IMG/VR virus record: IMGVR_UViG_2909251562_000001
Origin: a virus
Taxonomy: Duplodnaviria; Heunggongvirae; Uroviricota; Caudoviricetes
Strand: one strand, 5' to 3'
DNA: 49,376 bases
Both the position numbers and the translations under genes were made by a program. This document shows, one piece after another, positions 5,943 through 14,666 of this stretch (position 1 is the stretch's first letter; each line of letters opens with the position of its first letter). The notes beneath the pieces are model-generated. The model worked only from the letters and a program-made list of their open reading frames with translations, did no database searches and was not told the origin of the DNA.

Positions 5943-6150
5943 GTTGACCTCATTTCCCCTTAACGCCGGGGTAGCGGAACAAAAACCTGCTGCATAGTTA
6001 TTAAAGTTGAACCCTGCCGTCATGTTCTTACGCCTCGGGCTGGCTACTTAACCCCTGACCACTGCCGGGTAACTCGAAGTATTGCCCTGCATTCTGTGGG
6101 GTGGAGTGAAGGAATGAATGAAGTTTAGAAAAATGAACTTTACAGGTCAA

Positions 6151-10675: not shown

Positions 10676-11230
10676 TCAATTATCTAAAATTGTGCTAAAT
10701 CTTTTTATTACCATTAAGAACGTTATAACAGTGATAAAAAAGGATGCATAGGATAAAAAGCTAACAATATATGCAGGTGCGCGAAAATACCATTTCATTA
10801 AATCTACTGCATTGTCAGGCAGGAAATATATTATCACTGAAAATATAACCAATACTATTGAAGTTAATATTGCATAAGCGACGTTGTGGCATAACTGCTC
10901 ATATATGGTTTTGTTAGTGTTTAATGATATCAATTTGTCTCGGGATTTGTTTCCTTCAATTATGTCTGATATCTTAGTGATGGTTTTTTGTTTTTGTTCA
11001 TAAATCATTATTACTGCACTCATTAATAGTGCTGTTGTAATAGCCCCGAAGTTAACGAAGACGGAAGCAATTGCCGGTTTCATTATTCCGTATGTCCAGC
11101 ACAGAACGAAAGAAAGAGATAACGGAACAATAAAATGTACGATAATGTCGCTCATCAACATTGTTCCACGCTGATCTGACATTGTTTTGTAGTGTTTTAT
11201 TATTACACCCAGCACATTTATTTTATTCAT
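10676..11230 (-). CDS. four-helix integral membrane protein (candidate effector of a two-gene module)
   Basis: 184 aa with four long hydrophobic segments. Its ATG overlaps the upstream gene's stop (ATGA). Very AT-rich. Confidence 0.7.
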   Translation of the reverse strand: MNKINVLGVIIKHYKTMSDQRGTMLMSDIIVHFIVPLSLSFVLCWTYGIMKPAIASVFVNFGAITTALLMSAVIMIYEQKQKTITKISDIIEGNKSRDKLISLNTNKTIYEQLCHNVAYAILTSIVLVIFSVIIYFLPDNAVDLMKWYFRAPAYIVSFLSYASFFITVITFLMVIKRFSTILDN

Positions 11231-12159
11231 ATAATCACCCCTTTGTTTCCGCTATGCAGTTCTAACAATATATCATTAGAAAGGTTTTTTATCGTGTCAT
11301 GAAGTGCTGTTAGATCAGGTATGCCTGTTAATGGGTCGATTTTTAAATCATTATCATCTAACTCTGCGGAAATTCCTTTTTTTAGTATGGTCTCATAATT
11401 GAAAACGACAGTCCGACTGCCGAGTTGTAAGCTTACTTTTATTGCATCACATTTATCTTCAATAATCTCAATGATGTTTCCTATATTCTTGTTTCTTAAA
11501 TCCCTGAAACTTCCGAACATGCCATTGTTTGCTTTTATTATTAAGTCTGTCTTGATGTTTGTTTTGTTTTGACCAAAGGAATCAGCAATGTCTTTTGGTG
11601 CTTTATATCCTTGAGCCTTAATTTGTTTTAATTCGGAATTGAGAATATATTGAGGGATTTTCTTATGATGTAATGGATTGATTCTTGCTTCGAGTTGAAA
11701 TTTGTTTTTTAGATATTCAGTGATAGAATCAGAAAGGACACCTCGAGCAGAAATATTATCGCAAGAGTGGAATGCAATAATTCCTTCTTCAAGGGTGTCT
11801 GGTAGGTATATTAAAATATAACGTTCTTTGAGTGTTACATCATAAGCAGTTGTCCTATAGTGGATTTTTTTGAGTTTTACATCTTTTATTTCACTGCTTT
11901 CTCCATATTTCCCAACTTTTATATAACCATATATAATTTTCTTTGAGTTATCAAAGTGAAGTTTAGCGTGTTGTTCCAGAGATATTTTAGTTTTGGATAC
12001 GCCAAACTCGATAGGGGTGTTTTTATATAGAGTAAAATAATCAACAAAAAGTTCATATGCCGTTTTTTTATTACTTAAACCCAATTCATTAAGTTTTTTG
12101 CTGGCTCGACTGCCTTTATGGGTCAATACGCGGAATGAATAGAAATTAACGCTGTGCAT
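11227..12159 (-). CDS. 310-aa protein of unknown function (candidate sensor/enzyme partner)
   Basis: Long AT-rich ORF, Lys/Ile/Asn-rich, no motif I can recognise by eye; translationally coupled to the downstream membrane protein. Confidence 0.7.
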   Translation of the reverse strand: MHSVNFYSFRVLTHKGSRASKKLNELGLSNKKTAYELFVDYFTLYKNTPIEFGVSKTKISLEQHAKLHFDNSKKIIYGYIKVGKYGESSEIKDVKLKKIHYRTTAYDVTLKERYILIYLPDTLEEGIIAFHSCDNISARGVLSDSITEYLKNKFQLEARINPLHHKKIPQYILNSELKQIKAQGYKAPKDIADSFGQNKTNIKTDLIIKANNGMFGSFRDLRNKNIGNIIEIIEDKCDAIKVSLQLGSRTVVFNYETILKKGISAELDDNDLKIDPLTGIPDLTALHDTIKNLSNDILLELHSGNKGVII

Positions 12160-12585
12160 GAAAAGTCCTTTTGAACATATAGGAGTATACTAGAACATAA
12201 ATAGATGCAATGCATAAAGGAAAAGCTACCGCAGGGCGAACTCACCCACCGATAACTCTTAACTGGTTGTTTGTAAAAGATAATACATAAATTTGGGTCT
12301 GTGTAAAGAGGTAAGCATCGTCAGGGCAAGGGAGATGTGTTAGGCAATATTGGTAAAATTTACGTTGAGGATAAAAACGGTTTGCGGGAAAAGGAGAGTT
12401 AAGTAGAATTGCTGCGGGTGCTTGAGGCTATCTGTCTCAGGCATGAACACCAAAAGGCAGATAGAGAAAAGCCCCAGTTAACATTACGCGTCCTGCAAGA
12501 CGCCTAACATTAATCTGAGGCCCAATCTATGTCTCACAAATGTAGGTTAGCCTCTTACGTGCCGAAAGGCAAGGAGAAGCAGGCT

Positions 12586-12741
12586 ATGAAGCAGCAAAAG
12601 GCGATGTTAATCGCCCTGATCGTCATCTGTTTAACCGTCATAGTGACGGCACTGGTAACGAGGAAAGACCTCTGCGAGGTACGAATCCGAACCGGCCAGA
12701 CGGAGGTCGCTGTCTTCACAGCTTACGAACCTGAGGAGTAA
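12586..12741 (+). CDS. hokD: Hok/Gef-family toxin (HokD/RelF-like)
   Basis: MKQQKAMLIALIVICLTVIVTALVTRKDLCEVRIRTGQTEVAVFTAYEPEE, 51 aa, matches the Hok family signature and E. coli RelF/HokD as recalled. Structured leader upstream. Confidence 0.85.
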   Translation: MKQQKAMLIALIVICLTVIVTALVTRKDLCEVRIRTGQTEVAVFTAYEPEE

Positions 12742-12808: not shown

Positions 12809-12831
12809 TAACCCGCTTCGGCGGGTTTTTT
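12809..12831 (+). terminator. rho-independent terminator (copy 1 of a 23-bp repeat)
   Basis: TAACCCGCTTCGGCGGGTTTTTT: hairpin plus T-run downstream of hok. Confidence 0.7.
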
Positions 12832-12832
12832 A

Positions 12833-12879
12833 TTGGTTGACAAAATTATGAATATGCACCAATATCTTGGTTGACAAAA
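12833..12879 (+). promoter_or_regulatory. tandem 13-bp direct repeats, each with a TTGACA -35 hexamer
   Basis: TTGGTTGACAAAA at 12833-12845 and again at 12867-12879, just upstream of the cassette's first gene. Confidence 0.4.
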
Positions 12880-12914
12880 GTCGTTTTTTGCACGGATTAG
12901 GCGGAGAAGTGTCT

Positions 12915-13508
12915 ATGCAGAACCATCCATTCCCTTGGGAGTTCTTTCCTGAGTTAACAGAGGAGCGTTTAACCATTATAGCTGAGGAGTTGCTCAGGAT
13001 ACAGGATATTACTCATGAGTTATTGTCATCGCCCTATGATGATAATTACACTCGTGGTGGTTGTACATTTGGGCGTCAGCGGCAGGCGTTGCTACAAATG
13101 TGCGTACGAAAGACATATGACTGGTTAAGACTACTTAATCCTGGCATGGATCTTACGTTTTCAATTGGGAATGTCCCTATTCGTTTCTTTACTGATGACG
13201 CAGATAACCCCAAGAAACGCGGTTTTTTCAAAAGAAATGATGCTGATCGACTCTTTGAGTCAGAGGAGACTACTCCAACTATGCATCGCTTTGTGGTTGA
13301 AAAGCCTGAATTTGAAGGCGAGGGTGGTAGAGTCATTTTTAATGGCTATAACGTGTTTGGTGAGATCGTGTCAACTTGGACATATGGTGCGGACCGTGTT
13401 GTTATGCTGAACTCTGTCGATGATGTACCTCCAGCACCGGTACCTATCGAACTAGAACCTATCAGTGCGTCTAAGACTGAGAAGGAAAAGAAACAAAATA
13501 GCAAATAG
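12915..13508 (+). CDS. 197-aa protein of unknown function (candidate toxin/effector)
   Basis: ATG 12915 preceded by GGCGGAG; no recognisable motif; 10 nt upstream of the XRE/ImmA gene. Confidence 0.6.
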   Translation: MQNHPFPWEFFPELTEERLTIIAEELLRIQDITHELLSSPYDDNYTRGGCTFGRQRQALLQMCVRKTYDWLRLLNPGMDLTFSIGNVPIRFFTDDADNPKKRGFFKRNDADRLFESEETTPTMHRFVVEKPEFEGEGGRVIFNGYNVFGEIVSTWTYGADRVVMLNSVDDVPPAPVPIELEPISASKTEKEKKQNSK

Positions 13509-13518
13509 TGGGTGAAAT

Positions 13519-14640
13519 GTGTTTAACGGTACTAATTTAAGACTTGCTCGTCTGTATCACGAGCTATCTCTGGAGCAGGTTGCTGAGAAGGTTGAAAAAA
13601 CACGCCAGTATGTACAGCGACTGGAGTCTGGTTCAGCTACTCCATCCCCAGAGCTTATAAATAAATTAGCCGAGGTTTTGCGCGTGAAGCCCGCCTTTTT
13701 CGAAGGGCAGGAACATTCTCCTGTTAATGAAGAGATTGTACATTTTCGTAAACGCGCCTCGACAAGGATGTCAACGAAGCTATCAACACTCGCTAAGGCT
13801 GAGTTTTATCGTCGTTTTATTGATGTATTTGAAGATAACCTTAATTTGTCACCTGTTCGATTTCCTGAATTTCGTGTCCATACACAAGAAGATATCGAGC
13901 GAGCGGCAGAAAAATGTCGTATTGAGTGGGGCTTAGGCTTTGGCCCAATTGAAAATATGACTCGCCTTGCCGAGAAACTTGGGGCGTTTGTTACTTCATT
14001 TGACTCCGTTTCGGATGAAGTAGATGCACTGTCTGTTCCTCTACGAAGGCCTTTTATTGTTCGAAATACAGCTAAAAATTCACCTTGTAGGCAACGCTTT
14101 GATATTGCTCATGAGGTTGCCCATTTGATTCTTCATGAAGGAATTTCTACTGGGGATAGATTAACTGAATCCCAGGCAAACCGTTTTGCCTCTGCTCTGT
14201 TGCTTCCCAGAACGTCGATGGCGAAATATTTTCCAAGACCTGTGGGGGGGAGGATAAATTGGCAGGGACTAAGCCAATTTAAGTTGACATGGAAAGTAAG
14301 TAAGGCTGCCATTGTTTACAGGGCTCATCAATTAGGACTTTTGACTGATGAGCAGTACAGAACTGCATTTATGGGGTTGAAACGGAAAGGGGAAGCTATT
14401 GATGAAAAAGAAGATTATCTAATCCCTCATGAGCGTCCTGAGTTATTCCGTCGGGCTTTATCGTTTTTATTTGAAGAGTTAGGATACGACCCACAGCGTA
14501 TAGCTGATGAAATGGATATAGAAGTGGACATTTTTTATGAGTTAGCAGGAGATGATCTTCCTGCGGTTCATGAACTGCCAGGAAGTGGTGATGTTGTTTC
14601 ACTACAATCTTACCGAACTCTTAGAGGCAAAATTCACTAG
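13519..14640 (+). CDS. XRE-family HTH fused to ImmA/IrrE-type zinc metallopeptidase (COG2856-like)
   Basis: N-terminal HTH (LSLEQVAEKVEKTRQYVQRLESG) and HEXXH motif HEVAHLILH in a 373-aa protein. Confidence 0.8.
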   Translation: MFNGTNLRLARLYHELSLEQVAEKVEKTRQYVQRLESGSATPSPELINKLAEVLRVKPAFFEGQEHSPVNEEIVHFRKRASTRMSTKLSTLAKAEFYRRFIDVFEDNLNLSPVRFPEFRVHTQEDIERAAEKCRIEWGLGFGPIENMTRLAEKLGAFVTSFDSVSDEVDALSVPLRRPFIVRNTAKNSPCRQRFDIAHEVAHLILHEGISTGDRLTESQANRFASALLLPRTSMAKYFPRPVGGRINWQGLSQFKLTWKVSKAAIVYRAHQLGLLTDEQYRTAFMGLKRKGEAIDEKEDYLIPHERPELFRRALSFLFEELGYDPQRIADEMDIEVDIFYELAGDDLPAVHELPGSGDVVSLQSYRTLRGKIH

Positions 14641-14643
14641 GCA

Positions 14644-14666
14644 TAACCCGCTTCGGCGGGTTTTTT
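14644..14666 (+). terminator. rho-independent terminator (copy 2 of the 23-bp repeat)
   Basis: Identical TAACCCGCTTCGGCGGGTTTTTT immediately after the XRE/ImmA gene. Confidence 0.7.

Follow-up and report, generated by a model that had tools for sequence, protein, structure and literature searches.

A conserved pair of direct repeat units at the predicted promoter of a prophage RosmerTA operon: candidate operators for the antitoxin RmrA

The analyzed DNA stretch (49,376 nucleotides of a Caudoviricetes genome, referred to below as the window) contains a RosmerTA toxin-antitoxin cassette inserted behind the hokD gene of a prophage. The 83 bp that separate the hokD terminator from rmrT, the first gene of this cassette, are best explained as the cassette's own promoter-operator region. 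This DNA segment is composed largely of two adjacent direct units of about 34 bp, the first of which is predicted to provide the -35 hexamer of a single promoter, while the second would overlap the transcription start. We estimate at roughly 0.6 the probability that RmrA, the antitoxin encoded by the second gene, binds both units (termed O1 and O2) and represses its own operon; this estimate is derived from comparative sequence analysis.

The repeat pair and the cassette to which it belongs

Exact copies of the 13-bp sequence TTGGTTGACAAAA were found at positions 12833-12845 and 12867-12879 (+ strand), with a start-to-start distance of 34 bp, and no other copy is present in the window. The hexamer TTGACA lies within each of them (12837-12842 and 12871-12876). 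The original prediction, made from the sequence of the window, was thus correct in placing a 13-bp repeat twice, 34 bp apart, with a consensus TTGACA in each copy, between the hok terminator and the first gene of the cassette (the terminator hairpin, 12810-12831, precedes the pair and the ATG at 12915 follows it). Its description of the pair as tandem 13-bp repeats holds only in part: the repeats are direct, but they are not strictly tandem 13-mers, since they form the cores of two adjacent units of about 34 bp. These units (12833-12866 and 12867-12900) are identical at 22 of 34 positions, as counted from the sequence, and in both of them the sequence TGCAC is located 13 nt past TTGACA.

The TTGGTTGACAAAA pair is the sole exact direct repeat of at least 13 bp within 60 bp across the 49-kb window, and when the window was simulated 300 times with a second-order Markov model, only 8 runs contained any repeat of this kind. 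The rarity of the repeat by itself is modest evidence, suggestive and not decisive. A search of the window for further operator-like sites yielded six matches with 2 mismatches, which were unconvincing; the only exact sites are the two described above.

The features of the region, in the coordinates of the window, are as follows.

12416-12591: sok RNA (Rfam RF01794)
12529-12741: hok ORF (Pfam HOK_GEF; annotated hokD in RefSeq genomes)
12810-12831, + strand: hokD intrinsic terminator AACCCGCTTCGGCGGGTTTTTT, 22 nt, found by terminator scan; left edge of the inserted cassette
12833-12866, + strand: unit 1, proposed operator O1; 13-mer, -35 hexamer TTGACA, TGCAC (12855-12859) and -10 hexamer CAATAT (12860-12865)
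12837-12865, + strand: predicted sigma-70 promoter of rmrTA; TTGACA, 17-nt spacer, CAATAT
12867-12900, + strand: unit 2, proposed operator O2; 13-mer (12867-12879), TTGACA (12871-12876) and TGCAC (12889-12893)
12903-12906, + strand: Shine-Dalgarno sequence GGAG of rmrT, 8 nt ahead of the ATG at 12915, read from the sequence
12915-13508, + strand: rmrT, RosmerTA toxin gene, 197 aa (PADLOC RmrT PDLC03929, E = 5.5e-93, full length)
13519-14640, + strand: rmrA, antitoxin gene, 373 aa (PADLOC RmrA PDLC03943, E = 8.2e-201)
14645-14666, + strand: second, identical copy of the hokD terminator, found by terminator scan; right edge of the cassette

The two genes located downstream of the pair match the PADLOC models of RosmerTA over their full length, in the order toxin then antitoxin, and are separated by a gap of 10 nt. 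A Pfam search detected no domain in RmrT. RmrA contains an XRE-type helix-turn-helix (HTH) domain (aa 7-61; Pfam HTH_3, 1.5e-12) and a peptidase domain of the M78/ImmA-IrrE type (aa 151-269; Peptidase_M78, 8.3e-17). The assignment to RosmerTA is based on this combination of an XRE HTH and a Zn-peptidase (M78) in RmrA and on the adjoining RmrT gene in the same operon. RosmerTA is an anti-phage toxin-antitoxin system (Millman et al. 2022; Ernits et al. 2023). For the neutralisation of toxicity by RmrA and for protection against phage the evidence is that of the literature, according to which rmrA resisted deletion and those Pectobacteriaceae that carry the system depend on it. The published accounts consulted treat defence, toxicity and the essentiality of rmrA, and none of them treats a promoter or an operator. 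Among the papers searched, no description of either was found for RosmerTA, and the conserved two-unit region appears to have gone undescribed so far.

Comparison with related prophages revealed that the 1.8-kb RosmerTA insert starts 1 nt before the first repeat, and the repeats therefore belong to the cassette. The site is empty in related O157 prophages (L001, 1910-1935), in which hokD is followed by a single terminator and then by DUF968 and rusA. In E. coli AREA_R505 (L002) the same point is occupied by other cargo, a 130-aa ORF, and the terminator is duplicated (1905-1925 and 2575-2600). Such a duplication of the terminator hairpin at the right end of the insert was found in each filled case. 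The RosmerTA insert is present at the hokD site in 21 of 5426 complete E. coli genomes. Judging from these sequence comparisons, the hokD terminator serves as a hotspot at which morons insert into prophages. The RosmerTA cassette itself is a self-contained moron with its own control region.

Additional features were noted in the vicinity of hok/sok. The DNA segment 12750-12831 (+ strand), which spans the 3′ end of hokD and its terminator, gave a full-length match to the Salmonella prophage sRNA isrK (Rfam RF01394) that is below the threshold of this family (31.8 bits compared with a gathering score of 50; E = 7e-5). Just upstream of hok/sok, the opposite strand (10676-12159, - strand) carries two overlapping ORFs of 184 and 310 aa without any Pfam or PADLOC match. 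The 184-aa product looks, from its sequence, like a membrane protein, and the two ORFs could represent another accessory or defence cassette.

The predicted promoter and the conservation of both units

The comparative set consisted of 33 loci, i.e. the window and 32 genomes encoding relatives of RmrT (40-87% identical), and covered Enterobacterales, Pseudomonadales, Xanthomonadales, Burkholderiales, Rhodocyclales and others. rmrA was found directly downstream of rmrT in 31 of the 32 related loci, that is, in every one with a long enough contig (43-77% identity).

In the window, the TTGACA of unit 1 agrees with the -35 consensus at 6/6 positions and is followed, after a spacer of 17 nt, by the hexamer CAATAT, which agrees with the -10 consensus at 3/6 positions, including A2 and T6. 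This promoter, with its 3/6 match at -10, was not listed by the consensus promoter scan, which requires at least 4/6 matches per hexamer; it was found by hand and by comparison across the loci. The hexamer located 17 nt past the unit-1 TTGACA contains A2 and T6 in 29 of the 33 loci (e.g. CAATAT, CAACAT, GATTAT or TATTTT) and agrees with TATAAT at 3.2/6 positions on average. The elements found at unit 1 are thus those of a sigma-70 promoter: a -35 hexamer, a spacer within the range of 16-18 nt and a -10 hexamer with A2 and T6. The sequences indicate that the operon has a single sigma-70 promoter with its -35 hexamer in unit 1. Transcription of rmrTA is predicted to start at approximately 12872-12874, within unit 2, and unit 2 would then constitute the first 20-25 nt of the 5′ UTR. 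Two other promoter types were considered and rejected: the TG needed for an extended -10 element is misplaced by 2 bp, and the sigma-54 consensus (GG-N10-GC) does not appear to fit.

Two copies of GTTGACA(A/G)A are present upstream of rmrT in all 33 loci, with spacings of 34 bp (23 loci), 33 bp (8 loci) and 31 bp (2 loci). Sequence logos anchored on the pair defined a unit of about 34 bp, GGTTGACAAA-N10-(T)TGCA, in which GCA is located exactly 13 nt past TTGACA in both units. The GG ahead of TTGACA, the AAA behind it and the GCA 13 nt downstream are kept in both units; in the logo of unit 1 TGCA is followed by nAnnAT, and the positions flanking the units carry next to no information. In most of nine distant plasmid loci (RmrT 26-34% identical), including representatives of the Alphaproteobacteria, the pair can still be recognised, and it is degenerate in those of Salmonella houtenae and Proteus. 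Among the lines of sequence evidence concerning the pair, its occurrence with the same spacing upstream of every related operon examined is the decisive one. The logos point to conservation beyond the needs of a promoter: GG, AAA and TGCA play no role in -35 recognition, and unit 2, which is predicted not to be a promoter, is conserved as well.

RmrA as the candidate binding protein, and competing explanations

Each unit forms a pseudo-palindrome of about 22 bp, TTG(A)CAAA-N8-TTTGCA(A/C), with the best axis of symmetry at the unit centre, and across the loci a few double substitutions keep this symmetry. The palindrome is imperfect: its halves are one base out of register, and in Enterobacterales the right half reads TGCAC, not TGCAA. 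The dyad of unit 2 (TTGACAAA...TTTTGCA) is better than that of unit 1, in which the right half is weaker. Such a dyad suggests, with the reservation that the palindrome is imperfect, a site for a dimeric HTH protein.

Among 31 orthologues, the recognition helix of the RmrA HTH, GKTRQY(I/L)(Q/H)(R/K)LE, hardly varies, and the linker and C-terminus of the protein are poorly conserved. An alignment of this HTH was used to scan IMG/VR contigs, which gave 41 loci, all of them RmrA. Fifteen of these were new to the motif-based scan described below, and all 15 contain the pair upstream of rmrT, 630-705 nt before rmrA. Six RmrA clades with different recognition helices were compared; in five of them (Polaromonas, Acinetobacter soli, Shewanella, A. 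haemolyticus and A. pittii) the upstream repeats are different or absent, and the sixth is the Zymomonas clade described below.

Some further observations concern RmrA and its more distant relatives. In Zymomonas mobilis plasmid pZZM401 (L048, approximately 590-650), which encodes an RmrA of 30% identity with the helix GVSRQAISQFE, two TTGACA hexamers located 31 bp apart precede the toxin gene; TGCA is absent and the first hexamer is followed by a good -10 sequence, TATACT. This pair hints that the two-site architecture may be older than the RmrA subfamily studied here. The strongly conserved motif (V/F)HFRK was found right after the HTH, at the end of the variable linker, in all RmrA orthologues (window 13738-13752, aa 74-78), and is a candidate cleavage or toxin-contact site. 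A sequence search of the PDB with RmrA retrieved generic HTH proteins only and no DNA complex on which a model could be built.

The original prediction had offered two alternatives for the pair, namely paired operators for the HTH domain of the downstream XRE/ImmA protein or tandem promoters. The latter is not supported by the data presented below. For the former, phylogenetic footprinting provides good support: the conservation of both units extends beyond promoter needs, each unit is pseudo-palindromic, and they always travel with an RmrA of nearly invariant recognition helix. As expected of autoregulatory operators, the sites overlap the core promoter of the operon and its predicted start, and they co-occur and are co-conserved with the DNA-binding domain of the antitoxin. 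In the mechanism that we propose, unit 1 would supply the -35 hexamer of the one sigma-70 promoter and transcription would begin inside unit 2. Dimers of the XRE-HTH domain of RmrA, with or without RmrT, would bind, probably in a cooperative manner, to O1 over the -35 hexamer and spacer and to O2 from +1 to about +22. This binding would shut off transcription of rmrTA, a negative autoregulation of the kind known from classical type II toxin-antitoxin operons. The loss or cleavage of RmrA during phage infection would then have two effects, release of the toxin and derepression of the operon. The centres of the two units lie 31-34 bp apart (34 bp in the window), which corresponds to about three helical turns; the units are therefore placed roughly on the same face of the DNA, a spacing compatible with two dimers touching each other.

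If, instead, both TTGACA hexamers acted as -35 elements, each would produce its own rmrTA transcript. Both copies are perfect -35 hexamers and tandem promoters occur in prophage morons, but no -10 element was found 16-18 nt past unit 2 in the window (GGATTA matches the consensus at 0/6 positions, and the best candidate, GATTAG, matches at 3/6 and lacks T6). Across the set, the hexamer 17 nt past the unit-2 TTGACA has A2 and T6 in 1 of 33 loci, compared with 29 for unit 1, and its mean match to TATAAT is 1.7/6. In addition, the start codon is located 3-24 nt past the GCA of unit 2 and in 16 of the 33 loci within 3-13 nt (3 nt in L024, with the sequence TGCAAAAATG, and 5-13 nt in 15 others), a distance that leaves no room for a -10 element, a transcription start and a ribosome-binding site; a transcript initiated from unit 2 would therefore often lack a ribosome-binding site or a start codon. 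These data make tandem promoters highly improbable. It is also very unlikely that the conserved entity is an RNA element, in which transcribed unit 2 would fold into a hairpin (UUGaCAAA/UUUGCAA) that controls the stability or translation of the mRNA, with unit 1 as a duplicate kept for the promoter. The dyad could indeed pair as RNA, a few double substitutions keep the pairing of unit 2, and this unit abuts the Shine-Dalgarno sequence in many loci. However, unit 1, which precedes the predicted transcription start, has the same dyad and the same conserved bases, the bases of the stem do not covary but are invariant, which is the expectation for sequence-specific recognition by a protein, and the predicted fold of the 5′ UTR is no more stable than those of shuffled sequences (z = -0.41) and leaves the dyad unused. 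An Rfam search of positions 12833-12914 gave no family match. As for chance or a recent local duplication, with a single -35 hexamer as the sole function of the pair, the probability of a 13-bp repeat within 47 bp arising somewhere in the window is roughly 3%; nevertheless, the pair and its fixed spacing are kept over three proteobacterial classes, in which the bases around and between the units are randomised, and these comparative data effectively refute this explanation.

The same element was also encountered outside RosmerTA operons. A motif-first scan of IMG/VR with the pattern GTTGACAAA-N9-11-TGCA-N8-12-GTTGACA identified 55 loci, compared with approximately three expected by chance according to our own estimate. 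RmrT, usually with RmrA, is encoded immediately downstream in 31 of these loci (RosmerTA), 3 are chance-like, and 21 are GC-rich phage contigs (L052, L054, L055, L057, L059, L060 [6071-6140], L062, L069-L071, L080, L085-L088, L093, L094, L097, L099, L102 and L104). In all 21 phage contigs GGTTGACAAAnCGnCGAATnTGCAAG occurs twice, exactly 33 bp apart. In 14 of them the element is placed in frame inside a long ORF and reads VDKxxxLQ twice; these ORFs are not mutually homologous, and one encodes a RecE-like exonuclease (PHROGs), the other PHROGs annotation being uninformative. The codons GTT, AAA and CAA used within the element are atypical for DNA of mostly 55-67% G+C. Downstream of the element no RmrT or RmrA was found in any of the 21 contigs, and no HTH of the KTRQY type was detected anywhere on them. 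The phage copies have no -10 after unit 1 and no conserved neighbouring gene or surroundings. L069 contains three units and L086 contains extra TTGACA copies.

The phage contigs carry the element without RmrT or RmrA; therefore, recognition by something other than a cis-encoded RmrA may occur. The serious rival of the operator model is thus a portable DNA element read by another factor, such as a host protein conserved over the Proteobacteria, a phage regulator or RNA polymerase, which RosmerTA would have borrowed as its promoter region. Several observations speak for it: 21 of the 55 motif loci lie in non-homologous phage contexts, mostly in long ORFs, lacking RmrT and RmrA downstream, none of these contigs encodes a KTRQY-type HTH, and the atypical codons in G+C-rich DNA point to a constraint acting at the DNA level. 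On the other hand, every RmrA-type HTH found is accompanied by the pair. The phage-class element has no -10 and therefore represents a functional unit other than the RosmerTA promoter; moreover, the phage-class matches are not mutually independent, as several of the contigs are related. Among the consensus sequences of LexA, CRP, Fur, FNR, IHF, PhoB, NtrC and sigma-54 none is known to match. Taken as a whole, recognition by a different binder is unlikely, albeit deserving of serious attention. A more speculative option, to which we assign a rather small probability, is that RmrA itself reads phage DNA through operator-like pairs, which would trigger the system by titration of the antitoxin or be bound by RmrA acting as a transcriptional roadblock against the phage, or that the phage copies are anti-defence decoys. 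The element would in this view be both the operator of RmrA and a DNA signature placed in early genes of many unrelated GC-rich phages. In the titration variant, incoming or replicating phage genomes would draw RmrA off RmrT and off its own promoter, and the system would thus be triggered. If true, any such reading of phage DNA would tie a toxin-antitoxin operator to phage sensing.

Binding of RmrA to O1 and O2 remains the reading that we favour, and the following points count against it: the conservation of TTGACA in unit 1 is partly explained simply by its role as a -35 hexamer, the -10 sequence of the window matches the consensus at 3/6 positions only, the palindrome is imperfect, and the same element is present in 21 phage contigs without RmrA. 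The conserved 68-bp target (O1 and O2), with its predicted promoter and start, makes autoregulation by RmrA directly testable, and also provides a handle on whether RmrA relieves repression by cleaving itself, in analogy to the action of CapP on CapH. That an HTH antitoxin represses its own operon would be expected by a specialist, although it has not yet been described for RosmerTA; the surprise is limited to the strength of site conservation over proteobacterial classes and to the unexplained presence of the same element inside phage genes.

Comparison with known regulatory systems

As a genetic unit, the cassette resembles phage morons, i.e. promoter-gene-terminator cassettes located between prophage genes: it is a 1.8-kb insert with its own promoter, bounded by terminators, and its site is empty in some related prophages and filled with other cargo in others. 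It differs from them in that the right-hand terminator is a duplicate of the hokD terminator of the target and not the cassette's own. Replication-origin iterons were also considered and rejected: such origins have at least three direct repeats beside or inside an initiator gene and an AT-rich segment for unwinding, whereas the region has two units only, there is no adjacent rep gene, and a defence operon follows in all loci.

Repeated dyad sites (imperfect ones in RosmerTA) placed over the operon's own promoter, together with an antitoxin of the XRE-HTH type, are shared with type II toxin-antitoxin operons. HipB recognizes four TATCC-N8-GGATA operators in PhipBA, the O1 and O2 sites of HigA are located over -35 and -10, and MqsA binds palindromes. 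By analogy with these operons negative autoregulation would be expected, and the presence of two sites suggests cooperative binding by two dimers. Unlike in these systems, in RosmerTA (i) the toxin gene comes first, (ii) the HTH of the antitoxin is fused to an M78 metallopeptidase, (iii) the sites are two direct 34-bp units, the second of which is located at +1 and not over -10, and (iv) the half-sites are offset by one base.

The domain composition of RmrA recalls CapH/CapP, a repressor-peptidase pair that controls CBASS and other immune operons and combines an XRE HTH with a Zn peptidase of the ImmA/IrrE type; the PADLOC models of capP (2.8e-17) and capH (4.9e-10) both match RmrA. As a precedent for the binding proposed here, the HTH of CapH binds a conserved 22-bp promoter site and requires oligomerisation for this, and CapH-CapP fusions exist. 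In most cases, however, CapH and CapP are separate proteins and control a divergently transcribed immune operon from a site upstream of -35, whereas RmrA combines both domains in one polypeptide, also serves as the antitoxin and is encoded in the operon that it would regulate, with sites over -35 and +1. A CapH/CapP module is further characterised by cleavage of the HTH protein in response to ssDNA. The separate HTH and M78 genes and the divergent operon that also define such a module are absent from the RosmerTA locus, and the resemblance would thus concern the mechanism only. The same logic may extend to ImmR/ImmA and DdrO/IrrE: in these systems, as in CapH/CapP, an M78 peptidase inactivates an XRE repressor.
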